Positions 1,196 through 32,257 of a stretch of 40,915 bases of DNA are shown one piece after another. A model generated the notes under the pieces. That model did no database searches, had not been told where the DNA came from, and saw only the letters and a list, made by a program, of their open reading frames with translations. How positions within the stretch are numbered: position 1 is the first letter of the stretch; each line of letters begins with the position of its first letter. A program made the position numbers and the translations under genes. Origin of the DNA: Actinomycetes bacterium (lineage in GTDB: Bacteria > Actinomycetota > Actinomycetes > JACCUZ01); contig DASTVO010000455.1 in NCBI GenBank assembly GCA_035759075.1, positions 1-40,915 of the forward strand, in the 5' to 3' direction.

Positions 1196-1335
1196 GCCGG
1201 TCGCGGCGCGATGAGTCACCCGGCGACCGTAGCGACCGCTCGCGCGGTGTCGCACCGCCGCTTCGGCAGCATCGGATGCGGAAACGGCCCGGAAAGCGAC
1301 CGGTCAGGCATCCGATCCTCGGGGGATGTGGCCCG

Positions 1336-4774: not shown

Positions 4775-4799
4775 CGGCCGGAGTGTAGGACTGGGCAGG

Positions 4800-6425
4800 T
4801 CACGGTGTGACGCTGGTGATCACGGCGCCGTCCGGGTCGACCGCCTCGGCCCGGACCAGCTGCGACGCCGGTCGCGACACCGGCCCGAGGAACGCGTTCA
4901 CGTCGCCGCCTGCAGTGCGGACGGTCGAGACCGAGCCGTCCTCCCAGCGCAGCCGGACCGACGCCGCGTCGGGCGGAGCAACTCCCGCCACGCCGGTCGC
5001 GTCTGGGTCGTCCGTCAGCAGCAGCCGGAGAGCGCCCTCCACCGGCGCGCATGCGCTGTCGGTCGGGTTCCAGTAGGCGCGCGGCGGGCCGGCCCACCAG
5101 CGGCCGGCGGTCAGCCGGCACGCCGCGCCCCCGTCTGTGCGGACCTGCACGGCCCGGCCCTCACCCGCGTCGGCCGACGCCACGACCCGGTCCAGCGTGC
5201 GCGGCACGTCCGGGCCGAGGAGCGAGCCGGCCGGGATCAGGTCGACCACCGGGCGCCCGGCCCGCAGGACCCGCACCCGGGTCACGGCCTCCGGCGCGCG
5301 CACCGGCACGAAGGCCAGCCGGTTCTCCGTGAAGCTGCTGGACCGGGTGACCGCCTCGCCCGGCACGCTGCTCGTGACCTGGACGGTGTCGCCCACGTCC
5401 GGCGGCAGCAGCACCAGCAGCAGGGTCCGCTCGCCGTCACGCACCGGCTGCGCGACCAGCGACGAGAGCGACCGGTAGACGCCGGACGTGCCGCTGCGCA
5501 CCGATGCGTCCCGCCGCGTCGAGCGGAAGGTCGCCGACATGACGACCACCCCGCCGTCGGACGACTCGCCCCGCAGCAGCACCACCACGCGGTCGGAGCC
5601 GGGCGGCCGGCTGACCACCAGCGGGCGCAGCGCCGAGCCGCCGCCGACCGCGGCGACCGCGCGCCGGAACATGTCGTCGGTCAGCCGCACCGACCGCCAC
5701 GAGGCCTCCGGCTGCGCCTCACGGAGGACGGGCAGCGTCGTCGGCCGGTCCACCGGTGGCCGGTCCGGTCGGGTCACCGGTCCGTCCAGCACGGCGGCGG
5801 TCAGCGCGACGCCCGTCACCACGGCAGCCGCCGACCAGAGTGCCCGGCGGCGGCGCCTGCGGCGCTCACGGGCCGCCCGGCGCAGCTCGGGTCCGGTGAC
5901 CCGCCACGGCTGCACGGTCCCGGCCAGCGCCGCCAGCTCCCGGCCTACGGCGGCGTCGACGTCGGTACCGCCGTCCACGCGGTCGCGCAGCAGGCCCAGG
6001 GCAGCGGTGCGCCGCCGGGCGACCGTGCCCGGGGTCGTGCGCAGCAGCTCGCCGACCTGGGCGGTGGTCAGCTGCTCGTGGCTGGACAGCACCAGCACAG
6101 CCCGCTGCCGGGCCGACAGGGTCGCCAGCACGTCGCCGGGGTCGGGGCCGGGGTCGGGCCGCGCGCGGGACCGGGCCAGGAACGTCCGCAGCAGCATCCC
6201 GCGGACGCGGTGCAGCGGGTCGTCGGAGGCGACGACGCGCCGCCACCTGCCCGCAGCCTGCACGAGCGTCTCGCGCAGCAACTCGGTGGCCGCGGGCCGG
6301 TCGCCGGTGAGCAGGCAGGCGGTGCGCAGCAACGGGAGCGCGTGCGAGGACACGAAGGCGTCGAAGCCGGCCGCGTCGGCGCGCAGCAGGTCCTCGCCGT
6401 TCGTCCGCGTCCCGACGTCGACCAC
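4800..6425 (-). CDS. SigE/ECF-type sigma-70 family domain fused to a transmembrane segment and an extracytoplasmic domain of about 340 aa
   Basis: Track ORF 4800..6452(-). The N-terminal part (about 165 aa) carries sigma region 2/4-like segments (LLRTACLLTGDRPAATELLRETL; LSARQRAVLVL...LTTAQVGELLRTTPGTVARR). An RRRRRR stretch follows, then a TM helix (ALWSAAAVVTGVALTAAVL). I prefer the GTG at 6425 because a GGGAGG Shine-Dalgarno lies 6 nt upstream; the ATG at 6452 has none. Confidence 0.7.
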   Translation of the reverse strand: MVDVGTRTNGEDLLRADAAGFDAFVSSHALPLLRTACLLTGDRPAATELLRETLVQAAGRWRRVVASDDPLHRVRGMLLRTFLARSRARPDPGPDPGDVLATLSARQRAVLVLSSHEQLTTAQVGELLRTTPGTVARRRTAALGLLRDRVDGGTDVDAAVGRELAALAGTVQPWRVTGPELRRAARERRRRRRRALWSAAAVVTGVALTAAVLDGPVTRPDRPPVDRPTTLPVLREAQPEASWRSVRLTDDMFRRAVAAVGGGSALRPLVVSRPPGSDRVVVLLRGESSDGGVVVMSATFRSTRRDASVRSGTSGVYRSLSSLVAQPVRDGERTLLLVLLPPDVGDTVQVTSSVPGEAVTRSSSFTENRLAFVPVRAPEAVTRVRVLRAGRPVVDLIPAGSLLGPDVPRTLDRVVASADAGEGRAVQVRTDGGAACRLTAGRWWAGPPRAYWNPTDSACAPVEGALRLLLTDDPDATGVAGVAPPDAASVRLRWEDGSVSTVRTAGGDVNAFLGPVSRPASQLVRAEAVDPDGAVITSVTP

Positions 6426-6482
6426 GCCTGGCCTCCCGTCCCTCGGGTCCATGGTGCGCCCGGTGGTCAGGCTGGTCTCAGG

Positions 6483-11181: not shown

Positions 11182-11943
11182 TCACGGGACCGGACGCACC
11201 GACTCGGCGATCTCGACGGCCCTGCGCATGCTGAGGTCGCCCTCGAGCCGAAGGCCTCTGGTCCCGCGTTCCCAGACCAGCGTGCTCCCGGCCAGCCGCG
11301 CGCCCACGGTCGGTCGCGTCCCGTCCTCCCGGAGCAGCACGACCTCGTGCGGGCCGTCGATCCAGACCGCGAAAGCGCCGCCCACGACCGTGAACTCGGC
11401 TCCGGGCGCGGTCTTGGCGAAGGTGAAGTCGACCCGGGCGTCGAAGGTGTCGAGCCGCACCGAGCCGTCCGCTCCGCCGGACCAGCTCATCGACAGGACC
11501 CTGCGGTCGTGCGACACGGCCACCGCGTCCGGGCGGCCCAGGGCTGCCGGCACGACGGGCGTGAAGCCGACCAGTCGCTGCGCCTCCTCGAGGGACAGCG
11601 AACCCGTCACCTCGCGAGGACCGGCCGTGGCTGACGGCGCCACACCCTGGCGCACCCGGACCCCGGCGAAGCCGAACCAGTCCGAGACGGCGGCTCGGAC
11701 GGGCGGCGTGAGCAGCAGCACGACGAGGGCGACAGCCGCCGACGCGACGAGGCGGCGGCGACGGCCGCTCGCCGCGGCGAGCCGGTCACCCGCGAGCCGG
11801 AGGGCACCGCGATGGGCGGGGGCCGGTAGCTCCGCGACCCGCGCCATGACGCGCTCGACCAGCGCTGGGTCGACGCCGGCGGGCGGCGCCGACCGGCCCA
11901 CCGCGGTGAGCTCGCGGACCAGATCGTCTGTGTCAGGAGCCAC
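11182..11943 (-). CDS. membrane-anchored putative anti-sigma factor
   Basis: This is the 3' part of track ORF 11182..12009(-). The GTG at 11943 overlaps the sigma gene stop by 11 nt. It has one TM (LVASAAVALVVLLLTP) and an extracytoplasmic domain. The call rests on position and topology; no zinc-binding anti-sigma motif was seen. Confidence 0.55.
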   Translation of the reverse strand: MAPDTDDLVRELTAVGRSAPPAGVDPALVERVMARVAELPAPAHRGALRLAGDRLAAASGRRRRLVASAAVALVVLLLTPPVRAAVSDWFGFAGVRVRQGVAPSATAGPREVTGSLSLEEAQRLVGFTPVVPAALGRPDAVAVSHDRRVLSMSWSGGADGSVRLDTFDARVDFTFAKTAPGAEFTVVGGAFAVWIDGPHEVVLLREDGTRPTVGARLAGSTLVWERGTRGLRLEGDLSMRRAVEIAESVRPVP

Positions 11944-12502
11944 GGTGCGCCTCCGATCTCGGGACAGAGTCCGGGGCGTCGCCGCCGTCACCGTCGAGGG
12001 CCTCGGCAAGTCGGCGCACGGCGCGGTGCAGCCGCGACTTCACGGTCCCCCGGGACCAGCCGAGCAGCGCCGCGGTCTCGGCCTCGTCGAGGTCGAGCAG
12101 ATACCGGCACGTGATGACCTGCTGGTGCGGTTCCGACAGGGTGGCGATCCCGCGAAGCAGCTCGTGCCGGCGTTCCTCCGTGACGGACGCCGCCTCCGGG
12201 TCGGTGCGGTCGGGCGCGGTGACCAGCCGCTCCGTCCGCTCCCAGGCGAGCCACTCCCGTGCGGCCCGTCGGCCGGCTGCCCGGTGGAGGTTCCTGGTCT
12301 CGTTGCCGACGATCCGCAGCAGCCAGGGCCGGAACGCGGCGCCCTGCCGGAAGCTGCCCAACGACTCGTAGGCCTTGACGAACGCGTCCTGCACGACGTC
12401 GTCGGCGTCGGCTCCGGCTCCCATCATCCGCGCGGTGCGCAGTGCCACCGGCGCATGCCGACGCACCAGCTCCGCGTACGCCTCGCGATCTCCCGCGCGC
12501 AC
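11933..12502 (-). CDS. ECF (sigma-70 family) RNA polymerase sigma factor
   Basis: Region 2 is seen as DVVQDAFVKAYESLGSFRQGAAFRPWLLRIVGNE, and region 4 as LDLDEAETAALLGWSRGTVKSRLHRAVRRL. The track start (GTG 12502) probably truncates the N-terminus; see the finding on an ATC start at 12538. Confidence 0.85.
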   Translation of the reverse strand: MRAGDREAYAELVRRHAPVALRTARMMGAGADADDVVQDAFVKAYESLGSFRQGAAFRPWLLRIVGNETRNLHRAAGRRAAREWLAWERTERLVTAPDRTDPEAASVTEERRHELLRGIATLSEPHQQVITCRYLLDLDEAETAALLGWSRGTVKSRLHRAVRRLAEALDGDGGDAPDSVPRSEAHRGS

Positions 12503-13216: not shown

Positions 13217-13324
13217 GGCGCGGCTCCTCGTGATGGGGGTACGGCGGCTCAGCAAGTAGACCGTGCCCGGGAGCCGTGCTCATCGCCCGCCTCTCCACAA
13301 CCGCGCCGCCGGTGCTTGACGAAC

Positions 13325-13346
13325 TGTCGGTGGGGAGGTCTACTGT
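13325..13346 (+). promoter_or_regulatory. RecA-independent DNA-damage promoter motif (RecA-NDp / PafBC-type): TGTCGGTG-N8-TACTGT
   Basis: Read directly: TGTCGGTG at 13325-13332, an 8-nt spacer, then TACTGT at 13341-13346. This is an exact fit to the mycobacterial consensus tTGTCRgtg-N8-TAnnnT. Confidence 0.6.
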
Positions 13347-13355
13347 GGGACGTGT

Positions 13356-13371
13356 TCGAACAGGTGTTCGA
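13356..13371. promoter_or_regulatory. LexA (SOS) box TCGAAC-N4-GTTCGA
   Basis: Read directly: TCGAAC AGGT GTTCGA. It is a perfect palindromic match to the actinobacterial/Gram-positive LexA operator. It lies 9 nt downstream of the TACTGT hexamer and about 94 nt upstream of the first cassette ORF. Confidence 0.8.
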
Positions 13372-13464
13372 ACACCGGAGAGGCTTCCCGCCCGGTGCGC
13401 CGGACTCGACCCCTGGCGCACCGGGCGGGACCACCCGGGAGGCGACGGCTGGGGAGGAGGGCCC

Positions 13465-13779
13465 GTGACCCGACGGTACGACGAGCCGGTCGAGGTCCGG
13501 CGCCGGGACGAGGACCCGTCCGAGTTCCTGTGGCGGGGCCGGTTCTACGCGGTGCGCGCGGTGCTGGCGCACTGGGTGGAGACGGGCGCCTGGTGGCAGA
13601 GCCCGGTCTCCGCCGTGGAGGGCTCCGCCGCGCTCTCGCTCGACTCGTCCGTGCTCGCCGCCGAGCGCGAGGTGTGGCGGGTCGAGGCCAGCCCCGGCCG
13701 GGTGCACGGCGCCGGGGTCTACGACCTGTGCTTCGACTGGGCGGCGGGCGGCTGGACGCTGCTGCGCGCGCTGGACTGA
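13465..13779 (+). CDS. small conserved protein, DUF6504-like
   Basis: This is the 3' part of track ORF 13276..13779(+). The GTG at 13465 is preceded by GGGGAGGAGGG. FLWRGRFYAVRAVLAHWVETGAWW...EREVWRVEA...GVYDLCFD matches my memory of DUF6504 family proteins (not searched). Confidence 0.6.
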   Translation: MTRRYDEPVEVRRRDEDPSEFLWRGRFYAVRAVLAHWVETGAWWQSPVSAVEGSAALSLDSSVLAAEREVWRVEASPGRVHGAGVYDLCFDWAAGGWTLLRALD

Positions 13780-13792
13780 AGGGGAGAGCGTC

Positions 13793-14272
13793 ATGGTCAG
13801 GAGGGTCACCGCAGCCGACGGCCCCGTGCTGGTCGACCCGGTCGTCCGGCGCCCGCCGGTGGTCCCGGCCGCCCACGAGCTGCTCGCGACCGCCCGCCAC
13901 GACATCGCCGAGGCGATGGCCACCACCGTGGCCACCGAGCGCTACGCCGCGGCCCACCTGGCGGCGCTGCGCACGGCCGCGGCGGTGCTCGCGGTCCGGA
14001 CCCGGCCGGCCGCCACCAAGCGGCCGCGCAACGTCTGGTCGATGCTGCCGCAGGTGGCGCCCGAGCTCACCGAGTGGTCGGCGTTCTTCGCCGCCGGCGC
14101 CGGCAAGCGGGCCGCCGCCGAGGCAGGGCTCAGCCGGGCCGTCACCCCGCGCGAGGCCGACGACCTGCTGCGCGACGTGCAGACCTTCCTCGCCCTGGTC
14201 GAGACCACCCTCGGTCTCGACCACCAGCCGGTCATCCCGCACCTCGCCCCGCTCGCCCACCGGGCCAGCTGA
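13793..14272 (+). CDS. HEPN domain protein (SAV_6107-family-like)
   Basis: 159-aa ORF. The ATG at 13793 is preceded by AAGGGGAG. An Rx4H motif (ERYAAAH, nt 13940-13957) sits in a predicted helical protein. The family call is from memory. Confidence 0.6.
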   Translation: MVRRVTAADGPVLVDPVVRRPPVVPAAHELLATARHDIAEAMATTVATERYAAAHLAALRTAAAVLAVRTRPAATKRPRNVWSMLPQVAPELTEWSAFFAAGAGKRAAAEAGLSRAVTPREADDLLRDVQTFLALVETTLGLDHQPVIPHLAPLAHRAS

Positions 14273-14326
14273 GCACCCGCCGCCGACGACCACCGACCTG
14301 ACCCGCCGACCAGAGCCCGAGACACC

Positions 14327-17300
14327 GTGCCCAGCGATCCCTTCGTCCACCTCCACGTCGCGTCGGGCTACTCGCTGCGCTACGGCGCCTCCCACCCGCA
14401 CGTGCTGGTCGAGCGCGCGGCCGAGCACGGCATGGACACCCTGGCGCTCACCGACCGCGACGGCGTGTACGGCGCGGTGAAGTTCGCCCGGGCCTGCCAG
14501 CTGGCGGGCATCCGCCCGGTTCTCGGTGTCGACCTCGCGGTCGAGCCCAGCGGCCTGCTCACCGGCGCGCACCCCTCGCTGCGCCCCACCACCCGGTCTG
14601 CGGGCATCCGGGCGCAGCCGGCCCGGGGAGGCGCCTCCGTCGACCCCCGGCACCCGCGGGTCACCCTGCTCGCGCAGGACAAGCGTGGCTGGGCGGCGCT
14701 GTGCCGGCTGGTCTCCGCGACTCACCTGCGCGGCGAGCGGGGCACGCCGGTCACGACCCTCGACCTGGTCGCCGAGCACGTGCAGGCGGCGGCGGCCGGG
14801 GGAGCGGGCGGGCTGCTGGTGCTGCTCGGTCCCGGCTCCGAGGTCGGCCGGGCGCTGACCGCCCGCCGGCCCGACCTCGCCGGGGCGGTGCTCGACCGCT
14901 GGCGGGGCGCCGTCGACCGAGACGACCTGCTGCTCGAGGTCGTCTCGCACCGCGGACCCGACGACCTGCCCCGCGCCGCCCGCATGCTGCGGCTGGCCAC
15001 CGAGGAACGGCTCACCGCCGTGCTCACCAACGCCGTCCGCTACGCCGACCGCTCCGACGCGCCCACCATCGACGTCCTCGACGCCGCCCGCCGGCTGGTT
15101 CCCCTCGACCCGCGCCACGTCGACCGCGTCAACGCCGAGGGCTACCTCAAGTCCGGCAAGGAGATGGCGGAGGTCGCCGAGGAGGTCGCCACCGCGGCCG
15201 GTCTCGACCCGCGGGTGGCCCGCCGGCTGCTGGCCGCCACCCGGAGGGTGGCCGACCGCTGCGCCGTCGACCCGCGGGCCGACCTCGGGATGGGGGAGGT
15301 GCACTTCCCCGACCTCGACGTGCTCGGAGTGGCGACGTCCGGAGCGAGGAACGAGCGGAGGCGGAGTGCGACCGACGCGCTCGGTGTGGACGGTCGGGCG
15401 AGCAACGACCCGGTCGCGGCCGCCCAGGCGGCGCTGCGGGCGCGCTGCGAGGCCGGGCTGGGGCGCCGGGCGATGCCGGCGACCCGAGCGGTCCGGGAGC
15501 GGCTCGACGCCGAGCTCGACGTCATCGCCCGGCTCGGCTACCCGTCGTACTTCCTCACCGTCGCCGACGTCGTCGACCTCATCCGCGGCATGGGGGTGCG
15601 GGTCGCTGCCCGCGGGTCCGGCGCCGGCAGCCTGGTCAACTACCTGCTCGGGGTCTCCGGGGTCGACCCGATGCGCCACGGGCTGCTGATGGAGCGGTTC
15701 CTGTCCCCGCTGCGCGAGGCGCTGCCTGACATCGACGTCGACGTCGAGTCCGCCCGCCGCACCGAGGTCTACGAGCGCATCCTCGACCGCTTCGGCGGCG
15801 AGCGGGTGGCCTGTGTCTCGATGATGGACACCTACCGCGTGCGTCACGCGGTCCGCGACGTCGGGGCGGCGCTCGGCATGCCGCCGGGCGAGATCGACCA
15901 GATCGCCAAGGCGTTCCCGCACATCCGTGCCCGCGACGTGCACCTGGCGCTGGAGGAGCTGCCCGAGCTGCGCGCCTCCCGGATGGGTGAGGGCAGCCTC
16001 GACCTGCTGTTCCGGCTGGTGGCCCGCCTCGACGGGCTGCCGCGCCACGTCGCGCTGCACCCGTGCGGGGTGCTGCTCTCCGACACCACCCTGCTCGACC
16101 GCACCCCGGTGGAGGCGAGCTGGCTGGGGTTCCCGATGAGCCAGTTCGACAAGGACGACGTCGAGGAGCTCGGGCTGCTCAAGCTCGACGTGCTCGGCAT
16201 CCGCATGCAGTCCGCGATGTCGTACGCGGTGGACGAGGTGGTCCGGGTCGACGGTGGCGCCCCGATCGATCTCGACGACCAGACCCAGGTGCCGCTCGAC
16301 GACCCGGACACGTTCGCGCTGATCCAGTCCACCCGCACCCTGGGCATGTTCCAGATCGAGTCGCCCGGGCAGCGCGAGCTGGTCGGCAAGTTCGGGCCCG
16401 AGACGTTCGGCGACCTCATCACCGACATCTCGCTGTTCCGGCCCGGCCCGGTCAAGAGCGACATGGTCACGCCGTTCCTCAAGGCCCGGCAGGGCTGGGC
16501 CGAGCCCGAGTACCTGCACGAGTCGCTGCGGTTCGCGCTGGAGGAGACCTGCGGCGTCGTGGTCTTCCACGAGCAGGTGCTGCAGATCATCTCGACGGTC
16601 GCCGGCTGCACGCTGGCCGAGGCCGACGAGATGCGCCGGGCGCTGGGCAGCCCCGAGGGGCAGCCCGAGGTGGAGGTGTGGCTGCGCCCGCGGGCGCTGG
16701 CCCGCGGCTACGACGTGCCGACCGTGGACAGGGTCTGGGAGGTGCTCAAGGCCTTCGCCTCGTTCGGGTTCTGCAAGGCGCACGCGGCCGCGTTCGCGCT
16801 GCCCACCTACCAGTCGGCGTGGCTCAAGACCCACCACCCGGCGGCCTTCCTCGCCGGGGTGCTCACCCACGACCCCGGCATGTACCCCAAGCGGCTCATC
16901 CTCGACGACGCCCGCCAGTTCGGCATCGCCGTGCTGCCCCTCGACGTCAACCGCTCCGACGCCACCTACCGGGTGGAGCGGGTCGCCGACCCCCCGGCGG
17001 AGGTGGCGCGGCCGTGGGAGCGGGCACCCGCCTACGGCATCCGGCTCGCCCTGTCGGAGGTGAAGGGCATCGCCGAGGCCGAGGTCGCGCGGATCGTGGC
17101 CGGCCGGCCCTACGGCTCGCTGTCGGACTTCTGGCACCGGGCCTCGGTGTCCCGCCCGGTCGTGGAGCGGCTGGTCCTGACCGGCGCGTTCGACGACCTC
17201 TACTCCCTGCGCGCCCCGGAGCGGTCCGCGGGCAGCACCCGCACCCGGCTGACCCGCCGCGACCTGCTGCTGCAGGTCGGCGAGCTCGACCGGTGGTCGC

Positions 17301-18382
17301 GGGCGGTGGCCCGCGGCGCCCGGCGGTCCCGGCGTACGACGGGGAGAGGCGGTGCCCTGCGCAGCACCGCCGCCGACGACCGCGCCGCCCAGCTGCTGCT
17401 CGCCTCCGCCGCGGGAGAGGCGCTCACGACCGTCGAGCGGCCCGACGTCTCCCGGACAGGGGTGCGCGAGCTGGCCGCCCGGCAGTCCCAGGCGTCGCAG
17501 CCGGTGGTGGACTCGCCGGTGCAGCTGGCCCTCGACCTCGAGGACGCACCGCACTCGGTGGCCCCGAGCGGGCTGCCGGAGATGACCGGCGCCGAGCGGG
17601 TCCGGGCCGAGCTGGAGGTGCTCGGCCTCGACGCCAGCCGGCACGTCGTCGACTTCTACGAGCCGTTCCTCGCCGAGCTGGGGGTGACCCGGGCGCCCGA
17701 TCTCGTGCACTGCCGCAGCCAGGCGGAGGTGCTGGTCGCGGGGGTGAAGGTCGCGACCCAGACGCCGCCGATCCGGTCCGGCAAGCGGGTCGTCTTCGTC
17801 ACCCTCGACGACGCCCGCGGGCCGATCGACGCGACCTTCTTCGAGGACGCGCAGGGGCCCTACGCCGCAACGCTGTTCCACTCCTGGCTGCTGGTCATCC
17901 GTGGCCACGTCCGGCGCACCGGGCCGCGCGGGGTGTCGATGCGGGCCACCGGCTGCTGGGAGCTCACCGAGCTGCACCAGGCCTGGCAGCACGGCGGCCT
18001 GGACGCGGTGGCCGACCTGATGGCCGCGACCGGTCCGGTCACCGACCTCTCGGTCGCCGGCGCCGCCGAGAGCCGCTCCTCCCGGCCGGTGATGGCCCGG
18101 CCGCCGACCGGCAGCGCCGCCGAGGTCTACGAGCCGCGCGAGGTGGGCAAGGCCGGGTCGGCCGGCGGGATGGGCCGGCCACGCCGCGTGCTGGTGCACC
18201 CCAGCGGCTTCCGCCAGTCGCCCTACGCCGACGTCCGGCCACCGGGGGACGACGCGGCCTCGACCCGGCGGGCGGTCGCCCGCCAGGAGACAGCCCGCCA
18301 GGAGACAGCCCGCCAAGAGACAGCCTCCGCCAAGGCGCCGCGCAAGCTGTGGCACTCCAGCCCCGGCAGCCCGGGCCGATGA
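14327..18382 (+). CDS. dnaE2: C-family DNA polymerase III alpha-like, error-prone DnaE2 type
   Basis: 1351-aa ORF. It has an N-terminal PHP domain (FVHLHVASGYSLRYGAS...LALTDRDGVYGAVKF) and polymerase core segments (LKLDVLGIRMQS, FHEQVLQ, FGFCKAHAAAFA). The C-terminal tail ends ...PRKLWHSSPGSPGR. The DnaE2 assignment rests on the LexA box context and tail resemblance; C-family polymerase membership is secure. Confidence 0.85.
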   Translation: MPSDPFVHLHVASGYSLRYGASHPHVLVERAAEHGMDTLALTDRDGVYGAVKFARACQLAGIRPVLGVDLAVEPSGLLTGAHPSLRPTTRSAGIRAQPARGGASVDPRHPRVTLLAQDKRGWAALCRLVSATHLRGERGTPVTTLDLVAEHVQAAAAGGAGGLLVLLGPGSEVGRALTARRPDLAGAVLDRWRGAVDRDDLLLEVVSHRGPDDLPRAARMLRLATEERLTAVLTNAVRYADRSDAPTIDVLDAARRLVPLDPRHVDRVNAEGYLKSGKEMAEVAEEVATAAGLDPRVARRLLAATRRVADRCAVDPRADLGMGEVHFPDLDVLGVATSGARNERRRSATDALGVDGRASNDPVAAAQAALRARCEAGLGRRAMPATRAVRERLDAELDVIARLGYPSYFLTVADVVDLIRGMGVRVAARGSGAGSLVNYLLGVSGVDPMRHGLLMERFLSPLREALPDIDVDVESARRTEVYERILDRFGGERVACVSMMDTYRVRHAVRDVGAALGMPPGEIDQIAKAFPHIRARDVHLALEELPELRASRMGEGSLDLLFRLVARLDGLPRHVALHPCGVLLSDTTLLDRTPVEASWLGFPMSQFDKDDVEELGLLKLDVLGIRMQSAMSYAVDEVVRVDGGAPIDLDDQTQVPLDDPDTFALIQSTRTLGMFQIESPGQRELVGKFGPETFGDLITDISLFRPGPVKSDMVTPFLKARQGWAEPEYLHESLRFALEETCGVVVFHEQVLQIISTVAGCTLAEADEMRRALGSPEGQPEVEVWLRPRALARGYDVPTVDRVWEVLKAFASFGFCKAHAAAFALPTYQSAWLKTHHPAAFLAGVLTHDPGMYPKRLILDDARQFGIAVLPLDVNRSDATYRVERVADPPAEVARPWERAPAYGIRLALSEVKGIAEAEVARIVAGRPYGSLSDFWHRASVSRPVVERLVLTGAFDDLYSLRAPERSAGSTRTRLTRRDLLLQVGELDRWSRAVARGARRSRRTTGRGGALRSTAADDRAAQLLLASAAGEALTTVERPDVSRTGVRELAARQSQASQPVVDSPVQLALDLEDAPHSVAPSGLPEMTGAERVRAELEVLGLDASRHVVDFYEPFLAELGVTRAPDLVHCRSQAEVLVAGVKVATQTPPIRSGKRVVFVTLDDARGPIDATFFEDAQGPYAATLFHSWLLVIRGHVRRTGPRGVSMRATGCWELTELHQAWQHGGLDAVADLMAATGPVTDLSVAGAAESRSSRPVMARPPTGSAAEVYEPREVGKAGSAGGMGRPRRVLVHPSGFRQSPYADVRPPGDDAASTRRAVARQETARQETARQETASAKAPRKLWHSSPGSPGR
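18279..18323 (+). repeat. 15-bp tandem repeat x3 (CCCGCCAGGAGACAG) inside the dnaE2 3' end
   Basis: Read directly. Copies 1 and 2 are identical and copy 3 has one G to A change. It encodes ARQET x3 in the low-complexity C-terminal linker. Confidence 0.9.
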
Positions 18383-18419
18383 GCACCCTGCCCGCAGCCG
18401 ACCTCAGTAGCCTTCCGGT

Positions 18420-19172
18420 GTGCCCGCCTCCGCGCCCGACCGGTCCGTCCGCACCGCCGCGGTGTGGGAGGCGCTGCAGCAGCTCGTCGCCGCCCGCGGC
18501 GCCGCCGGCGGCGGCGAACGTCCCGAGGTCCTCGACGTGCTCGACGTCGGCGGCGGCACCGGCGGCTTCGCCGTCCCGCTGGCCGCGCAGCACCGGGTCA
18601 CCGTCGTCGACCCCAGCCCGGACGCGCTGGCCTCGCTGCAGCGGAGGGCCGGCGAGGCCGGGGTGTCGGTCCGCGCGGTGCAGGGCGACGCGGCCGGGCT
18701 GCTCGACGTGGTCGAGCCCGCCTCGGCCGACCTGGTCCTCTGCCACGGGGTGCTGGAGCACGTCGACGACGTCAAGCCCTCGGTCGAGGCGCTGGCCGCG
18801 GTCCTGCGCCCCGGCGGGTCGCTCAGCGTCCTGGCCGCTCACCGCAACGCCGTCGTCGTCGCCCGCGCCGTGGCCGGCCGGTTCGACGAGGCCCGGCACG
18901 CCCTGGAGGACCCGGACGGCCGCTGGGGCCCGGGCGACCCGCTGCCGAGGCGCTTCACCGAGGCGGGGTTGCTCGAGCTGCTCAGCGGCGCGGGGCTCGT
19001 TGTCCGCGAGGTCCACGGCGTGCGGACGGTTGCCGACCTCGTCCCCGGCGGCCTGGTCGACTCCGAGCCCGGTGCGGCCGAGGCGCTGGTCGAGCTCGAG
19101 CTGGCGACCGCACACCGTCCGGAGTTCCGCGCGGTCGCGACCCAGCTGCACGTCCTCGCCACCCGGGCCTGA
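18420..19172 (+). CDS. class I SAM-dependent methyltransferase
   Basis: 250-aa ORF with SAM-binding motif I, VLDVLDVGGGTGGF, followed by LVLCHGVLEHVDD. It starts 38 nt after the dnaE2 stop. Confidence 0.8.
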   Translation: MPASAPDRSVRTAAVWEALQQLVAARGAAGGGERPEVLDVLDVGGGTGGFAVPLAAQHRVTVVDPSPDALASLQRRAGEAGVSVRAVQGDAAGLLDVVEPASADLVLCHGVLEHVDDVKPSVEALAAVLRPGGSLSVLAAHRNAVVVARAVAGRFDEARHALEDPDGRWGPGDPLPRRFTEAGLLELLSGAGLVVREVHGVRTVADLVPGGLVDSEPGAAEALVELELATAHRPEFRAVATQLHVLATRA

Positions 19173-19175
19173 CGC

Positions 19176-20474
19176 GTGAGCCGCAGCCAGCAGCTGCACC
19201 GGCCCGGGCCGCCCTCGGGGCCGCCGGGCGACGACACCGGCTGCACCGTCCTGCACGTCGACATGGACGCCTTCTACGCCTCGGTCGAGCTGCTCACCCG
19301 GCCTGAGCTGCGCGGCACCCCGGTGATCGTGGGGGGTGGGAGCCGCGGCGTCGTGCTCTCCGCCACGTACGAGGCGCGCCGCTACGGTGTGCACTCCGCG
19401 ATGCCGATGACCCGGGCCCGCCGGCTGTGCCCGCAGGCGACGGTGGTGCCGGCGAGCCACGGGCGGTACTCCGAGGTCTCCGCCGGGGTGATGGAGATCT
19501 TCCGGTCGATCACGCCGATGGTGGAGCCGTTGTCGCTGGACGAGGCGTTCCTCGACGTGTCCGGGGCGGTGCGCCGGCTCGGACGTCCGGCCGAGATCGG
19601 CCAGCTGATCCGGGACCGCGTCGCCGACGAGCAGGGCATCACCTGCTCCGTGGGGGTGGCCAGCACCAAGTTCGTGGCCAAGCTGGCCTCCACCCGGTCC
19701 AAGCCCGACGGGCTGCTGGTCGTGCCCGCCGCGGAGGTCGTCGCCTTCCTGCACCCGCTGCCGGTCGGCGCGCTGTGGGGCGTGGGGGAGAAGACCGAGA
19801 CCGAGCTGACCCGGCTGGGTCTGCGCACCGTCGGCGACATCGCGCACACACCGCGCTCGACGCTGGTCCGGGCCCTCGGCGGGGCCACCGGCAGCCACCT
19901 GCACGCGCTGTCGTGGGGGCGGGACGAGCGCTCGGTCGTCCCGCACGAGCCGGACAAGAGCATCGGCGCCGAGGAGACGTTCGCCCGCGACGTCGACGAC
20001 CCGCAGGTGGTGCTGCGCGAGCTGCTCCGGCTGTGCGAGCGCACGGCGGCCCGGTTGCGCTCGGCCGGGCTGGCCGGGCGGACCGTCAGCCTCAAGGTCC
20101 GCTTCGCCGACTTCACCACGATCACCCGGTCCCGGACGCTGCGGGAGGCGACCGACGTCGCCGCCGTCCTGTACTCCACCGCCCGGGGCCTGTTCGAGGC
20201 GCTGGGTCTCGACCGGGCCCGGCTTCGGCTGGTCGGGGTCCGGGTCGAGCAGCTGGTCGAGTCCGACACCGCGCCGCGGCAGCTGGAGCTGGGGGAGCGC
20301 ACGCACGGCCGTCGCGAGGCGGAGCAGGCCGCCGACCGCGCGGCCCTGCGGTTCGGCAGCGGAGTGGTCCGCCCGGGCAGCCTGGTCGGTGAGGACCGTG
20401 ACCCGAAAGGACCGCCCCGCCCGCCGGACGGCCGCCCCGGGAAACCTTCCGGAGGCCCCGGGCGTCTTCCTTGA
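19176..20474 (+). CDS. dinB: DNA polymerase IV (Y-family)
   Basis: 432-aa ORF. The catalytic motifs VLHVDMDAFYASVE and SLDEAFLDVSG are intact, so this is not an ImuB-type inactive paralog. The GTG at 19176 lies 3 nt after the methyltransferase stop. Confidence 0.9.
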   Translation: MSRSQQLHRPGPPSGPPGDDTGCTVLHVDMDAFYASVELLTRPELRGTPVIVGGGSRGVVLSATYEARRYGVHSAMPMTRARRLCPQATVVPASHGRYSEVSAGVMEIFRSITPMVEPLSLDEAFLDVSGAVRRLGRPAEIGQLIRDRVADEQGITCSVGVASTKFVAKLASTRSKPDGLLVVPAAEVVAFLHPLPVGALWGVGEKTETELTRLGLRTVGDIAHTPRSTLVRALGGATGSHLHALSWGRDERSVVPHEPDKSIGAEETFARDVDDPQVVLRELLRLCERTAARLRSAGLAGRTVSLKVRFADFTTITRSRTLREATDVAAVLYSTARGLFEALGLDRARLRLVGVRVEQLVESDTAPRQLELGERTHGRREAEQAADRAALRFGSGVVRPGSLVGEDRDPKGPPRPPDGRPGKPSGGPGRLP

Positions 20475-22912: not shown

Positions 22913-22935
22913 CCCGGTCTCGGGCGCGGGTCAGC
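22908..22935. terminator. hairpin spanning both convergent stop codons
   Basis: GCTGACCCG (22908-22916) pairs with CGGGTCAGC (22927-22935). The TGA at 22910-22912 and the TCA (stop of the - gene) at 22931-22933 lie inside the stem arms. The stem is short and there is no U-tract. Confidence 0.35.
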
Positions 22936-25306
22936 CGCGGCGGGGTCGCAACCGCAACCGGTCGCCGATCGCCGCCATCCCGGCGTCGATGGCGTCCAGG
23001 CCGTCGGCCGCCTTCTCCGAGATGGCCGTCGACACCGCCCGGGTGGACCGGGGCAGCAGCCGGGCCCGCCAGCGGCCCCAGCGGCCGGCCGACTCCGACA
23101 GGCTGGACCGGACCGCGTCGACGTCGCCCCGCAGGCCGTCGACGTCGCCGGCCATCACCGGCGCGTACCGGGCCCGCTCGATCGCCCCGGCCAGCCGGTG
23201 GGCGGACTCGGCCGTCTCCGCCGGCAGCTTGCGGTCCGCCACCAGCCGGACCACCCCGCCGCGCGGCGGGTCGCTGACCGGCCAGTCGTAGCCGTAGTCG
23301 ACGAGGGTGTCCTGCAGGTCGGCCCACGCCGCCTGCGCCTGCTCGGCCGGCGTGCCCGCCCTCGACCACCGGCGGCGCCGGACCACGGCCCGGGTCAGCG
23401 CCGGCACCGCCGCCAGTGCCAGCAGCCCGAGCCCGATCAGCAGCGGGACGACCGGGACCCGCACCGGACCGGCACCGACCCCGGAGGCGCCGCCCGGGTC
23501 GACGGAGCCGTCCAGCGGGATGTCGAACCGCTCCCGGTTCGGGCTGCCGCCGAGGCCCCGGTTCTCCGACGTCGGGCCCGGGCTCGCGGTCGGGTCCGGA
23601 CGGTCCGGCCCGCCGGCGGCCTCGGCCCGCGCGTACTCCGGGGGGTCGCCGGTCCGCTCGCTCGGCGTCGGCTCGAAGGCCACCCAGCCGACGCCCTCGA
23701 AGTACAGCTCCGGCCAGGAGTGGGCGTCGTGCAGCCCCACGGTCCGACCGCCCACCCCGTCCGGGGTGCCGGCGATGAAGCCGACCGCGACCCGGGCCGG
23801 GATGTCCAGGGTGCGGGCCATCACGGCCATCGTCGAGGCGAAGTGGACGCAGTACCCGGCACCGGAGCGCAGGAACGCCAGGATCGCCTCCGAGCCGTTG
23901 GCGTCCCCGACGGTGTCGGAGACCTCCTCGGAGTAGGTGAAGTCGTCGCCGCGCAGCCAGTCCTGCAGGGCCAGCGCCCGGTCGTAGTCGTTGATCTTGC
24001 TGCCGATCACCTCGCGGGCCGCGACCTCGACCGCGCCGGGCAGGTCGGCGGGCAGCTCGAGATAGCGGTCCATCGACCCGCTCGGATCGCCCGCCTGGCG
24101 CAGCTGCTCGACCGTGGGGCGGACGTCGAGCGCGCGGACGTCGTAGGTCAGCTGCCGGGTGGAGGTGTTCTCCCCGAACACGTTGAAGGTGGACTGGTCG
24201 TAGAGCCAGGTGCCGTCGATGGACACCAGCTGCGTGGGGTAGGGCAGCGGCAGCCAGGTCTGCTCGAGGTCGAGGACCTCGATCCGGTAGTTGCGCCGCT
24301 TGGTCTCGACGTCGGGTCCCAGACCGGGAGGCCGCGCCAGCCCGTCCTCGACGTCGTTGTCCGAGCGTGACACCTCGAGCTCGCTCGGCCGCCACTGCGC
24401 GCCGGTGAACTCGTCGAGCCCGACCAGACGCAGGTACGTGGCGGGGCCGGTGTACTGGATGACCGGTCGGTCCTCGGGCCGGCGCAGGTTCTTGCCCAGG
24501 TCGAGGATCGGGTTGATCACGGAGACCTTGTTGCCGCCGCTGCCGCCGCTGCCGAAGCCGCCGCTGCCGAAGCCGAACCCGGCGGAGCTCAGGTCCGGCA
24601 GCACCGCGGGCACGACCAAGGCCAGGCCGAGGGCGGTGGCGCCGACCCGCCGGCCGACCTGCCCGAGCGGCGCGGTCTCGACCTCGGGCTTCCAGTTCGG
24701 CCGCGGCACCATGTAGCGCATCGGCCGGCCCCACCGGCTGACCCGCTCGCGCGACTCGGCGAGCAGCAGGGCGAGGAAGCCGGTCGCGGCGATCGCGAAG
24801 GCCAGCCAGGACACGCCGTCCGGTGCCAGCGCGGTCGGCACGGTGTAGAGCGCGAGCAGCGGCAGCCCGGCGAGCGCCGCCCGCCGGTAGGTGACCGCGA
24901 GCGTGTCGACGAGCAGCGCGACCGCGCCGATGCCGGCGACGGTGATCAGCTCGATGCCGGGGGAGACGCCGATGGGCGCGGCGTACCGCTGGATGTCGGC
25001 GCGCCCCGAGGCCACCAGGTCCCCGAGCAGGTCCAGCGACCCGAGGGTCGGGACGACCGAGAACCAGGCGGCGTCGTGGCCGTAGCGAACGACCAGGTAC
25101 AGCAGCAGCGCGACCGCGCCGCCGAGCGGCACCATCGCGCGCGACACCGACAGCCGCCGCGCCCCCTCGCTGCCGGCGGCGACCATCGCCACCGCGAACA
25201 CCGACGGGAAGAACCAGGCGCCGGTGAGGAACGTCTGGCCGAGGCAGATGGCCGCGGCCACCGTCGCCAGTGCGGCGAAGACGGGCAGGCGCAGCGATCC
25301 GGGCAT
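22931..25306 (-). CDS. transglutaminase-domain membrane protein (TgpA / DUF3488-type)
   Basis: Track ORF 22931..26086(-), trimmed to the ATG at 25306 (MPGSLRLPVFAALATVAAA...), 5 nt after the upstream stop. It has a multi-TM N-terminal half. The transglutaminase core is seen as GAGYCVHFASTMAV, HSWPELYF and WVAFEPT. Confidence 0.85.
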   Translation of the reverse strand: MPGSLRLPVFAALATVAAAICLGQTFLTGAWFFPSVFAVAMVAAGSEGARRLSVSRAMVPLGGAVALLLYLVVRYGHDAAWFSVVPTLGSLDLLGDLVASGRADIQRYAAPIGVSPGIELITVAGIGAVALLVDTLAVTYRRAALAGLPLLALYTVPTALAPDGVSWLAFAIAATGFLALLLAESRERVSRWGRPMRYMVPRPNWKPEVETAPLGQVGRRVGATALGLALVVPAVLPDLSSAGFGFGSGGFGSGGSGGNKVSVINPILDLGKNLRRPEDRPVIQYTGPATYLRLVGLDEFTGAQWRPSELEVSRSDNDVEDGLARPPGLGPDVETKRRNYRIEVLDLEQTWLPLPYPTQLVSIDGTWLYDQSTFNVFGENTSTRQLTYDVRALDVRPTVEQLRQAGDPSGSMDRYLELPADLPGAVEVAAREVIGSKINDYDRALALQDWLRGDDFTYSEEVSDTVGDANGSEAILAFLRSGAGYCVHFASTMAVMARTLDIPARVAVGFIAGTPDGVGGRTVGLHDAHSWPELYFEGVGWVAFEPTPSERTGDPPEYARAEAAGGPDRPDPTASPGPTSENRGLGGSPNRERFDIPLDGSVDPGGASGVGAGPVRVPVVPLLIGLGLLALAAVPALTRAVVRRRRWSRAGTPAEQAQAAWADLQDTLVDYGYDWPVSDPPRGGVVRLVADRKLPAETAESAHRLAGAIERARYAPVMAGDVDGLRGDVDAVRSSLSESAGRWGRWRARLLPRSTRAVSTAISEKAADGLDAIDAGMAAIGDRLRLRPRRG

Positions 25307-25311
25307 CGTCC

Positions 25312-26621
25312 TCACGACACCTCTCCGACCAGGGCGCCGGTCGGCGGCCGCTGCCCCCGCACGTCGTGGCGGGAGGCGTGCTCCCACAGCTCGGGCAGCG
25401 CGTCGCCGGCGCGGACGGTGATCACCCGCCAGCCGGAGGCCCGCATCAGGGCCACCGAGCCGTCGAAGCCGTTGCCCGCGCGCGAGCGGCCGGAGGACGC
25501 GTAGGTCCACGTCGGGGTGTCCAGCATCACCGCGATCGCCGCGGTCGACCCGTGGCGCAGCCGGGCCAGCAGCCGCGCCTCCTCGGGGTCCACCGACCCG
25601 AGGACCGCGACGAGCAGGCCGTCGCCGCCGCCGCGGCGCAGCGGCGCACCCGCGTCGCGCAGCGTCTCGTTGGTCGAGGAGCCCACCACGGCCAGCGCGT
25701 CCAGCAGGGCGCCCTCGAGGTCGCTGCCGACGCCGCTGGCCTCGTGGGCGGCGCTGGCGACGCTGGCGCCGGTGTCGGTGAGCAGCCGGACGAAGTAGCC
25801 GTGCCGCACCAGGTGCACACCGATCGACGCGGCCGCGGAGACCGCCCACTCGAACGACGACCCCGGGCCCTCGCCGCCGTGGGCCATCGTGCGGGTGTCC
25901 AGCAGCAGCGTGCAGCGGGCCTGCCACGGCTGCTCCTCCCGGCGCACCATCAGCTGGCCGAGCCGGGCCGTCGAGCGCCAGTGCACCCGCCGCAGGTCGT
26001 CGCCCTGGCGGTACTCCCGCGTCCCCGCGTCGTCCTCTCCCGCACTCGCGATCGAGCGGGAGCGGCTCTCCCCGCTGCCGGTCCACTCGCCGGAGAGCTG
26101 CACCACCGGCAGGTTGTGCACCTGCGGGGTGACCACCATGGTGTCGCGGGAGCTGAACGCCCGCACCAGCTCGACCATCCCGAACGGGTCGGTCAGGCGG
26201 ATGGACAACGGGCCGAGCTCATAGCGGCCGCGGACCTCGGAGCGCACGGTGTAGGTCACCTCGCGCCGCCCGCGCGGCTCGACCCGGTCGAGCACGAAGC
26301 GCGGCCGGGACCCCAGCACGTACGGCACCTTGTCCTCGACCAGCATCAGCCCGGTGGGCAGCCGGGAGATGTTGTCCAGGCGCAGGGTCACCGCGCTGTC
26401 CTGGCCGGCGGCGGTACGCGGGGAGCCGAGGCGCCGGCTCGAGGAGAGCCGGTAACGGGTGCGCGAGACGACCAGCGCGCTGACCAGCGGCAGCGCGAGC
26501 AGCAGCACCGCCACGTGCAGCAGGTCCTTCTGCGACGTGGCCGCCGACGCGATGGTCACGGCCACCCCCGCGGCGACGAAGCTGCGTCCTCGCGTCGTGA
26601 GCCCGCGGAGAGCGTCGCGCA

Positions 26622-26622
<1 letters not shown>
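25312..26622 (-). CDS. DUF58 domain protein (module 1)
   Basis: Track ORF 25312..27222(-), trimmed to the GTG at 26622, which overlaps the MoxR TAG by 1 nt. DUF58 signature: TREYRQGDDLRRVHWRSTAR. Confidence 0.85.
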
Positions 26623-27665
<1,043 letters not shown>

Positions 27666-27791
27666 GAGTCCTCCTCGGCTGCTGGCCGGTGCGTCTGCAC
27701 GGGCTCCCCTGTGGAGCGGGAGTCTGTCACCGCAGGCGGTCGGTCGGGACGCTGACCGGTAACGATCTGCCCACGGCTGGTCCTGTCGACC

Positions 27792-28304
27792 TCAGCGTCG
27801 GTGGGCCCCGGTGGCGAGCACCAGGGCGGCCACCGCGGCGCCGAGCCCGACGAGGACCAGTCCCACCGAGGGTACGACGCTGCGGGCGGCTGTGTACGAG
27901 ACCAGCGCAGCCGACCCGACGGCCAGCGCCGCCGGTCCCCAGCGGGACCCGACCGGAGCCCTCAGCACCGGGACCGCCGCCGGCCCGCGGGGGGCCTCGG
28001 CCCGGTCGAGCGCCGCGACCGTCGCCAGCAGCAGCACTGCCGCGGCCAGAACCTGCGCGGGGCGCCACGACGAGGCGTCCAGGACAGCGGCCAGCAGCAC
28101 CGTCAGGGTCACCAGGGCGACGGCCACGGTCCCCGCCACCGGCCACTCGCCGGTCGCGGCCAGCAGGCAGGCCGCCGCGGCGAGGCCGGCCGCTGTGAGC
28201 ACCGGGCGCCCCGGGTCCGGCGGTGCCGAGACCAGCAGCGCACCCCAGCCGGCCAGCACGACCACCCCCTGGTGCAGGGCGCGGGGCACGGACCGCGGCC
28301 TCAC
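27792..28304 (-). CDS. hypothetical multi-pass membrane protein
   Basis: This is the 3' part of track ORF 27792..28697(-). The GTG at 28304 overlaps the DUF58 TGA as GTGA. It has about 4 hydrophobic helices, and no family was recognised. Confidence 0.45.
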   Translation of the reverse strand: MRPRSVPRALHQGVVVLAGWGALLVSAPPDPGRPVLTAAGLAAAACLLAATGEWPVAGTVAVALVTLTVLLAAVLDASSWRPAQVLAAAVLLLATVAALDRAEAPRGPAAVPVLRAPVGSRWGPAALAVGSAALVSYTAARSVVPSVGLVLVGLGAAVAALVLATGAHRR

Positions 28305-30570: not shown

Positions 30571-30575
30571 GGTCG

Positions 30576-32040: not shown

Positions 32041-32177
32041 CCAACCCTGCGCGGGGCCGCGCCGGGCCGCCGGCCGGCGCGCTGTGGCCGACCCGTGACC
32101 GACGCGCGGCCGGCGGCCTCGGCCAGGCGGCGAGGGGCGGCGGTGGAGAACACGTGCACCCGATCGAGTGGAATCGG

Positions 32178-32205
32178 TTGACGGTGGGGCTTGGTGGAGT
32201 AGAGT
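32178..32205 (+). promoter_or_regulatory. candidate mraZ/dcw promoter (-35 TTGACG, -10 TAGAGT)
   Basis: TTGACG at 32178-32183, a 16-nt spacer, then TAGAGT at 32200-32205. It lies about 55 nt upstream of the proposed mraZ start. Confidence 0.45.
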
Positions 32206-32217
32206 GGCGCGCAGTGG
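32184..32217 (+). promoter_or_regulatory. four GTGG boxes with exact 10-bp phasing (candidate MraZ operator)
   Basis: GTGG starts at 32184, 32194, 32204 and 32214. Further GTGG(G) copies occur at 32168, 32240, 32248 and 32258. Confidence 0.6.
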
Positions 32218-32257
32218 GGGAGCAGGTCGTCGCAGTGCCGTGGGGAGGTGGGTCGAT

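Follow-up and report, generated by a model that had tools for sequence, protein, structure and literature searches.

A putative DnaE2B mutasome operon without imuA and imuB in an actinobacterium includes a HEPN_SAV_6107 gene that is found behind damage-type promoter motifs across Actinobacteria

The window analysed here is a 40.9-kb stretch of actinobacterial DNA with 75% G+C (contig DASTVO010000455.1), in which positions 13325-20474 probably constitute a single DNA-damage-inducible operon of five genes, in the order imuB-C, HEPN, dnaE2B, methyltransferase and polY; this judgement is made jointly with its assignment to a known type of putative mutasome and with the reading of the HEPN protein as an accessory of that mutasome. 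The original prediction for this region had described a three-gene cassette and had found it puzzling that a DnaE2 polymerase should occur without imuA-imuB, an architecture which is already published for Actinobacteria (PMC12926913). That puzzle is largely explained by published work, and the new part is the HEPN gene, which is located behind damage-response motifs across Actinobacteria and is recurrently found beside mutagenic-polymerase genes. The HEPN gene, and to a lesser degree the methyltransferase gene, make up the part of the operon that is left unexplained.

The first three open reading frames (ORFs) of 104, 159 and 1351 aa lie in the same direction (Table 1), start with GTG, ATG and GTG, respectively, and have a G+C content at the third codon position (GC3) of 0.98, 0.97 and 0.97. 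GC3 was only 0.70 in the in-frame stretch 5′ of the first ORF (13276-13464), and the GTG start of this ORF was therefore set at position 13465. The first two starts follow Shine-Dalgarno-like runs (GGAGGAGG and AGGGGAG), with 13 nt between the 104-aa and 159-aa ORFs. The initial description of three co-directional ORFs behind an SOS/RecA-NDp promoter, the first two closely spaced and with strong Shine-Dalgarno sequences, was thus borne out by ORF calls, GC3 and motif scans. The three-gene cassette is real, but the unit is larger, since dnaE2B is followed after a gap of 37 nt by a methyltransferase gene and after a further 3 nt by dinB (polY). The identical five-gene order is present in close and moderately distant relatives (loci L001-L010, L096 and L097). 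Pfam assigned DUF6504, HEPN_SAV_6107 and DnaE-type polymerase domains to the first three products, with NCBIfam containing no model for either ORF104 or the HEPN protein. Both small proteins are strongly conserved, with at least 5848 clusters at 90% identity for ORF104 and at least 3097 for HEPN.

Upstream of these genes is a predicted composite promoter, consisting of a PafBC-type activator motif and a LexA operator directly 3′ of the -10 sequence. The motif TGTCGGTG-N8-TACTGT corresponds to the consensus for RecA-NDp promoters (TGTCRGTG-N8-TAnnnT) and is the sole match in the window, with 0 matches expected by chance (100 shuffles), while no full LexA box other than TCGAACAGGTGTTCGA occurs in the window (consensus for the actinobacterial LexA operator: TCGAAC-N4-GTTCGA). 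Both elements are kept in relatives (L001-L010 for the RecA-NDp motif), and the GAAC-N4-GTTC core was found upstream of the cassette in every related locus with that region sequenced. No promoter was called by a simple sigma-70 scan of the region, because the 19-nt spacer falls outside the scan rule. A second GAAC-N4-GTTC core (GAACCCGCGTTC, 28517-28528) is located among the MoxR/DUF58 genes further downstream; the TC/GA that flanks a full LexA box is missing here, and the match probably arose by chance. The intergenic stretch that lies upstream of the cassette is shared with a divergent RibD_C gene.

The 104-aa protein, described initially as being of unknown function, is the stand-alone form of the ImuB C-terminal domain (ImuB-C), as DUF6504 and this domain are one and the same. 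The DUF6504 model PF20114 matches residues 431-501 of the 506-aa ImuB of a Paracoccus plasmid, many 507-aa ImuB proteins carry the precomputed combination PF00817+PF20114 (with NCBI naming some of these 'DUF6504 family protein'), and comparison of a profile of actinobacterial stand-alone DUF6504 proteins with ImuB C-termini using hhalign gave an E-value of 3.3e-5. ORF104 itself shares 42% identity (E 1e-19) with the ImuB-C protein of Tessaracoccus (VEP41449), and plasmid 1 of Deinococcus deserti carries lexA, a Y-family polymerase gene, an 80-aa DUF6504 gene and dnaE, in that order. With DUF6504 being the ImuB C-terminal domain by these comparisons, the imuB slot of the cassette is filled by a split-off piece of ImuB. 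Stand-alone copies were already noted when ImuB-C was defined in 2013 (PMC3765255), and a 2019 paper (PMC6511836) described variants that lack ImuA and have ImuB-C as a separate protein. In published AlphaFold models ImuB-C is a beta-barrel, and the Mycobacterium tuberculosis model shows contact with the PHP domain of DnaE2 (PMC3765255, PMC6511836, PMC12926913). Searching the PDB by sequence and by profile, with ORF104 and the HEPN alignment as queries, gave no solved relative.

The 1351-aa polymerase contains the Pfam domains PHP, pol3_alpha, finger, HHH_6 and OB, and belongs by pairwise identity to the DnaE2B group, not to DnaE1 or DnaE2A. It is 49% identical to DnaE2B of Tessaracoccus (N-terminal 400 aa, E 1e-112), and over its full length 49% identical to the DnaE2B of Nonomuraea and 46% to that of Streptomyces (plasmid copy), whereas identity to DnaE2A of Paracoccus, S. 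cellulosae and Deinococcus was 29-33%. The PHP motif reads HLHVAS, which is degenerate compared with the HxHxHS motif of DnaE1. Between the HhH and OB domains lies the sequence QLALDL, a candidate beta-clamp-binding motif by what we take to be its resemblance to the QLxLF-type clamp motif. The protein is longer than Tessaracoccus DnaE2B (1351 versus 1277 aa), and its C-terminal tail contains three tandem ARQET pentapeptides (18278-18322) in a low-complexity extension after the OB domain.

The DinB protein has IMS, IMS_C and HHH domains, scored above cut-off with the NCBIfam DNA polymerase IV models, and retains the catalytic motifs DMDAFYASVE and SLDEAFLDV, as expected from the earlier remark that the nearby dinB keeps its catalytic acidic residues. 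It shares 55% identity with Tessaracoccus PolY (VEP41451, E 9e-138), C-terminal tail included, and is accordingly the ortholog of the active PolY partner. The tail (EAEQAADRAALRFGSGVVRPGSL) aligns with that of Tessaracoccus PolY (AERAIDKAVLRFGPRAVQRARL), which was modelled bound to RecA, and the putative RecA-NT motif in the window protein is assigned through this orthology. Among the ORFs scanned in the window, neither ImuA nor an inactive Y-family gene was found, and a tblastn search of the window with ImuA′ and ImuB of S. cellulosae and Paracoccus returned dinB as the sole match; both scans agree with the earlier observation that imuA and imuB are missing from their usual slots and that no inactive Y-family gene is in the window. 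By these tblastn results, and with a polymerase that is not DnaE2A, the window does not carry a canonical ImuA-ImuB-DnaE2 cassette. In Streptomyces and several of the metagenomic locus types, too, the methyltransferase gene (here between dnaE2B and dinB) is located 3′ of HEPN; the PADLOC mad2 model matched the methyltransferase domain with 65.8 bits, probably through nothing more than a shared fold.

A survey from 2026 divided DnaE2 into groups A, B and X and reported DnaE2B from genomes that lack imuA/imuB; two of the systems it described, DnaE2B-[ImuB-C] and DnaE2B-[ImuB-C]-PolY-RecA, are restricted to actinobacteria (PMC12926913). The Tessaracoccus lapidicaptus subunits are listed in its supplement, and their complex is an AlphaFold-Multimer model. 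As ImuB-C, DnaE2B and PolY are orthologous to these subunits, the cassette is assigned to the putative mutasomes of the DnaE2B-[ImuB-C]-PolY-RecA type. Both units are co-directional, have an SOS-type context and lack imuA or full-length imuB nearby, but the window has the additional HEPN gene between imuB-C and dnaE2B and the methyltransferase gene between dnaE2B and polY, and differs in a promoter which combines a RecA-NDp motif with a LexA box. Neither HEPN, PF18726 nor the methyltransferase is mentioned in the survey and the supplements searched, and a full-text literature search yielded no paper linking HEPN to ImuB, PafBC or DUF6504.

Comparison with other known systems showed similarities at the level of individual components. 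The canonical ImuA′-ImuB-DnaE2 mutasome of M. tuberculosis (Rv3395c-Rv3394c and Rv3370c) is likewise damage-inducible, with a C-family polymerase that depends on ImuB-C at its PHP domain and a partner of Y-family fold bearing clamp- and RecA-type binding motifs, but the window lacks ImuA′, has a separate ImuB-C and a catalytically intact PolY in place of ImuB, and encodes a polymerase of the DnaE2B group, distant from DnaE2A. Mycobacterial imuA′-imuB is a two-gene operon, whereas some uncultured actinobacteria have a three-gene HEPN-imuA′-imuB arrangement. In the split-ImuB operons (D. deserti plasmid 1 and the Kyrpidia type, PMC6511836) a stand-alone ImuB-C gene also lies directly 5′ of dnaE2 and is lexA-linked, but PolY is inactive and encoded upstream, lexA is inside the operon, and HEPN and methyltransferase genes are lacking. 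The Streptomyces dnaE2-dinB2 SOS operon (SCO1739-SCO1738; Tsai 2012; Stratton 2022) resembles the window in having a DnaE2B-group polymerase gene co-transcribed with a Y-family gene under LexA control, but its DinB2 is an inactivated PolY, the genes overlap by 4 bp, and ImuB-C is lacking; the Streptomyces HEPN ortholog is encoded elsewhere, next to methyltransferase and DUF3040 genes and behind a RecA-NDp-like motif.

The second small protein is modelled as a HEPN-type four-helix up-down bundle. The AlphaFold2 model had a predicted local distance difference test score (pLDDT) of 84, and the top Foldseek matches were the sacsin HEPN domain 3o10 (probability 0.99), 4nqf, 2hsb and 1wol, with template modelling scores of 0.5-0.6 and E-values of at least 0.3. 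The SAV_6107 family of the HEPN-M clade was recorded without conserved Rx4-6H motif, gene context or function (Anantharaman 2013, PMC3710099); the window protein fits this family by its PF18726 match and by a helical bundle nearest to solved HEPN domains, and membership of a damage regulon and linkage to translesion genes are added here. Where the canonical Rx4-6H motif would stand, at the beginning of the last core helix, the sequence reads PREADDLLRD, without a His, and its Arg (R120) is 89% conserved and replaced by Ala in Nonomuraea; the canonical HEPN RNase motif is lost. The earlier suggestion of an RNA-targeting module on the SOS promoter is therefore unsupported. Among 148 representatives clustered at 50% identity, R50 and H55 are conserved in 95% and 93%, respectively, with H55 replaced by Tyr in 6%, and other conserved residues are W82, W95, F99, R106 and D123.

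Clustering at 50% identity divides the HEPN family into 1154 clusters, nearly all with stand-alone proteins, and the N-terminal extensions of the longest representatives contained no Pfam domain. In two proteins (P0495, 824 aa, and P0112, 272 aa) a truncated HEPN_SAV_6107 domain is joined to PHP/DnaE domains, but these were rejected as true HEPN-DnaE fusions, as HEPN stops at profile position 74/98 and they resemble frameshifts or miscalls across the HEPN-dnaE2 junction. Homology of HEPN to ImuA was also rejected, as there is no RecA-like fold, and any likeness between the two would be a functional analogy. Compared with the HEPN-MNT toxin-antitoxin and defence modules, the window HEPN gene lacks an MNT or antitoxin neighbour and a mobile or defence-island context, and no MNT or antitoxin gene adjoined HEPN in any locus type examined. 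There were no phage copies of HEPN_SAV_6107, the sole match in the plasmid collection was an 11.85-Mb Nonomuraea replicon, and PADLOC gave a weak match to the candidate defence component PDC-M05B (21.6 bits, E 4.8e-5). Given the lack of phage copies and of mobile context, and PADLOC matches which are weak only, a role in defence was rated low.

The genomic neighbourhood of HEPN differs considerably between Actinobacteria. In 76 Streptomyces species (L011-L086) the HEPN gene is followed by methyltransferase, DUF3040 and TgpA genes, with no DUF6504, DnaE2 or DinB, and a metagenome scan seeded with the Nonomuraea HEPN sequence gave 80 further loci of several types. The arrangement imuB-C/HEPN/dnaE2 (type A) was found in 10 clear loci, and imuB-C/HEPN/methyltransferase/polY without dnaE2 (type B) in L123 and L095, with L145 lacking polY as well. 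HEPN-methyltransferase-polY or HEPN-polY (type C: L111, L115, L116, L139 and L169) and the Streptomyces-type HEPN-methyltransferase-DUF3040 arrangement (type E) together accounted for 19 loci. In a further 26 loci HEPN is solo, convergent with bldD and beside pyrR-pyrB (type F), and in four loci it precedes imuA′-imuB (type G: L155, L159, L166 and L172), with 40-44% identity of ImuA′ and 44-50% identity of ImuB to the S. cellulosae plasmid proteins. HEPN is thus linked to translesion genes in four independent arrangements (imuB-C/dnaE2B, imuA′-imuB, polY and imuB-C/polY), and in all cassette loci, including those without dnaE2, the distance from imuB-C to HEPN is 4-13 nt. The original pairing of DUF6504 and HEPN with dnaE2 does not hold as a fixed partnership, since HEPN is common without either gene.

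Several individual loci showed additional features. L095, L123 and L145 are natural deletion variants: a 370-nt gap is present at the expected dnaE2 site in L095 (GCA_011392945.1, contig WUUC01055753.1, 107-3637), and L145 reads imuB-C, HEPN, methyltransferase and DUF3040, with both polymerases missing. L154, L161, L165 and L168 have the type G promoter and HEPN subtype, with contigs ending before the downstream genes. The solo HEPN genes (L118-L176; for example L128, 5450-5660, and L162, 7800-8010) are convergent with bldD and lie beside pyrR-pyrB-pyrC-carA, and in L162 MTHFR and GNAT genes are located upstream. L087 is Nonomuraea gerenzanensis NZ_LT559118.1, listed in PLSDB as the 11.85-Mb 'plasmid I', which is chromosome-sized and almost unannotated there; in this replicon imuB-C is directly followed by dnaE2B, behind a GAGAACATATGTTCGAG box and with a GntR regulator gene upstream.

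Regardless of its neighbours, HEPN is preceded by motifs of the damage type. The sequence TGTCAGTG-N8-CACGAT, which is RecA-NDp-like with a C replacing the first T of TAnnnT, was matched 60-175 nt upstream of HEPN in 75/76 Streptomyces loci, with varying spacers, and in 0/76 control windows. An exact GAAC-N4-GTT[CT] LexA core was absent within 1.5 kb upstream in 75/76 of these loci, with L084 having GAACTCTCGTTT at -202. All 29 solo loci examined have a LexA-type palindrome, CGAA[T/A/C]-N4-GTTCG(A/G), which gave 4 matches in 191.6 kb of control sequence, and most have a TTCGAAC half-site just upstream of this box, around a TGGACA -35-like hexamer. In types A, C and G (L155, L159, L166 and L172 in the latter) HEPN is preceded by an NDp-like motif with a LexA box about 33 nt downstream of it, as in the window. 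In total, a LexA-like and/or NDp-like motif was present in 60 of the 61 metagenomic HEPN loci for which 250 nt or more were available upstream, compared with 2 NDp-like matches and 1 LexA-like match in 52 control windows. HEPN_SAV_6107 is therefore nearly always placed behind a predicted damage-type promoter motif, whatever its neighbours. RecA-NDp promoters are UV (ultraviolet)-responsive in Streptomyces (PMC5087735), one study reported no conservation of the mycobacterial PafBC motif in S. venezuelae, and a keyword search in the supplements of the S. venezuelae LexA/mitomycin C study did not find the HEPN ortholog. The TGTCAGTG element may offer a way to look for a damage response of PafBC type, independent of LexA, in Streptomyces.

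We propose that ImuB-C would dock on the PHP domain of DnaE2B, like the C-terminal domain of full-length ImuB, with the active PolY supplying a beta-clamp motif and a RecA-binding tail, and RecA encoded elsewhere standing in for ImuA; complex formation and mutagenic function are suggested by the published AlphaFold models and by analogy with canonical ImuA′-ImuB-DnaE2. HEPN would be a separate and ancient gene of the actinobacterial damage regulon, co-translated here next to ImuB-C, and may have a non-catalytic role, as accessory or regulator, in translesion-synthesis complexes with a Y-family or ImuB scaffold. Most likely, it is a HEPN factor of non-canonical type that is induced by DNA damage and linked to translesion synthesis. 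Of the earlier idea that the pair of small proteins are uncharacterised mutasome accessories or regulators, the DUF6504 half falls away, as this is the known ImuB-C, while the HEPN half is strengthened by the near-universal damage-type motifs and by the linkage to imuA′-imuB and polY. A wider version of this proposal, which we consider possible but short of probable, is that HEPN_SAV_6107 is an unrecognised actinobacteria-wide component of the damage response, a new kind of small subunit with accessory or regulatory function, in this respect similar to UmuD′, YolD or ImuA, which serves ImuA′-ImuB-DnaE2, ImuB-C-DnaE2B-PolY and PolY-only systems.

A number of observations weigh against this reading of the operon and of HEPN. 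AlphaFold2 prediction of ORF104 alone, using a 56-sequence alignment, was poor (pLDDT 64) with a probably spurious helix, and a Foldseek search of this model against the PDB gave no meaningful fold match. The DinB tail scored 26 in pairwise comparison with RecA N-termini versus a shuffle mean of 23.8, which is not significant, and Pfam DUF4113 was not detected in DinB. The absence of imuA/imuB is a finding for the 40.9-kb window, the source being known from short soil-metagenome contigs. HEPN is not an obligate subunit and could be a general SOS effector which merely shares promoters, because most HEPN loci (the 76 Streptomyces, the 26 solo loci and Nonomuraea) have no adjoining polymerase gene, because HEPN is absent from the Tessaracoccus unit, where the three mutasome accessions are consecutive (VEP41449-41451), and from the adjacent imuB-C-dnaE2B pair of Nonomuraea, with the single HEPN copy of the latter 5.7 Mb away, and because no clean fusion of HEPN to a mutasome domain or DUF6504 was found among the ten longest family representatives. 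Finally, R50 and H55 form an Rx4H-spaced pair in an earlier, non-canonical helix, which may allow for catalysis.

Some of these points would suit an autonomous SOS effector that hitch-hikes in the operon, such as a damage-induced RNase or a nucleotide-binding growth-arrest factor similar to SOS-induced toxins. We find this doubtful: the LexA or NDp motifs kept in loci without polymerase neighbour, the high conservation of R50-x4-H55, the weak match to PDC-M05B and the HEPN-free imuB-C-dnaE2B units of Tessaracoccus and Nonomuraea all fit, but the canonical active site has no His and has lost its Arg in Nonomuraea, the family is classed as lacking Rx4-6H with even H55 not invariant, there are neither antitoxin neighbours nor phage copies, and the linkage to four sets of translesion genes recurs beyond what shared regulation would lead one to expect. 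The synteny of HEPN, methyltransferase, DUF3040 and TgpA, common to the window, the 76 Streptomyces loci and metagenomic loci, could also mean that HEPN and methyltransferase are backbone genes upstream of the dcw cluster, around which translesion genes were inserted, or in Streptomyces deleted, by accident, so that their interleaving would say nothing about the function of HEPN or the methyltransferase. The window indeed ends in mraZ-rsmH-ftsI, and intermediates without dnaE2 (L095 and L123) or without dnaE2 and polY (L145) exist; such a history is nevertheless improbable, as it requires three separate insertions or deletions, as HEPN keeps its damage-type motifs in unrelated settings (beside bldD/pyrR and upstream of imuA′-imuB), and as imuB-C and HEPN are closely spaced in all cassette loci.

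A different function for the polymerase itself, as a spare replicative DnaE1-like enzyme with the operon serving normal-fidelity replication restart or gap filling, we consider highly improbable. The NCBIfam DnaE1 model scored slightly above the error-prone DnaE2 model (668 versus 646 bits, both below cut-off), and deletion of DnaE2 in Streptomyces left UV killing and UV mutagenesis unchanged (Tsai et al.), but the protein is orthologous to proteins classified as DnaE2B, its PHP motif is degenerate, and the gene, the only copy in the window and in a non-replicative context, is part of a putatively LexA-controlled operon with ImuB-C and a Y-family polymerase. The preferred reading of a DnaE2B mutasome operon with HEPN as accessory is summarised with its predicted elements in Table 1.

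Table 1. Predicted promoter elements, genes and candidate binding motifs of the operon (positions in the window)
Feature	Position	Strand	Basis or remark
RecA-NDp (PafBC-type) motif TGTCGGTG-N8-TACTGT	13325-13346	+	exact consensus match
LexA (SOS) box TCGAACAGGTGTTCGA	13356-13371	+	perfect 16-mer, 9 nt downstream of -10-like hexamer
imuB-C (stand-alone ImuB C-terminal domain, DUF6504), 104 aa	13465-13779	+	PF20114 (72.5 bits), Tessaracoccus orthology, GC3 0.98
HEPN_SAV_6107 family protein, non-canonical HEPN, 159 aa	13793-14272	+	PF18726 (126 bits), AlphaFold2 model, GC3 0.97
dnaE2, DnaE2B group, 1351 aa	14327-18382	+	Pfam domains, identity to DnaE2B proteins
QLALDL, candidate beta-clamp-binding motif of DnaE2B	17522-17539	+	between HhH and OB domains
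Class I S-adenosylmethionine-dependent methyltransferase, 250 aa	18420-19172	+	Methyltransf_25/11/12
polY/dinB, active-type Y-family polymerase, 432 aa	19176-20474	+	IMS, IMS_C and HHH domains; NCBIfam DNA polymerase IV
RQLELG, candidate beta-clamp-binding motif of PolY	20277-20294	+	by resemblance
RecA-NT-like C-tail EAEQAADRAALRFGSGVVRPGSL of PolY	20316-20384	+	aligns with Tessaracoccus PolY tail

The remainder of the window contains carotenoid-type genes in its 5′ part (263-6482 and 11182-12502), encoding Caroten_synth, a phytoene-desaturase-like amine oxidase and a GT2 glycosyltransferase, together with a luciferase-like monooxygenase and a 560-aa protein with sigma-70 region 4. A gene for an extracytoplasmic function (ECF) sigma factor is located upstream of the cassette (11933-12502), and the adjoining ORF (11182-12039) had no Pfam match; from its position alone, one might guess at an anti-sigma factor. 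Downstream of dinB lie a DUF3040 gene, two MoxR/DUF58/transglutaminase modules and then the dcw cluster (mraZ-rsmH-ftsI). The genes between the operon and mraZ (22931-32442) are on the minus strand and encode the transglutaminase TgpA, two MoxR AAA_3 ATPases, a DUF58 protein and a DUF4129 protein.

In Actinobacteria, mycobacteria included, mutagenesis that depends on DnaE2 is a driver of stress-induced mutation and of drug resistance, and the subunit composition of DnaE2 mutasomes beyond the ImuA′-ImuB model rests on computation alone. The window offers a clean natural example of a putative DnaE2B system without ImuA/ImuB, together with a conserved protein which current models omit and whose gene is physically linked to both canonical and split mutasome gene sets. 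If the proposed role of HEPN is correct, the operon would encode a complete mutasome with one subunit more than currently modelled, and if HEPN_SAV_6107 modulates translesion polymerases, it would provide a new handle on induced mutagenesis, testable in Streptomyces through a single gene.

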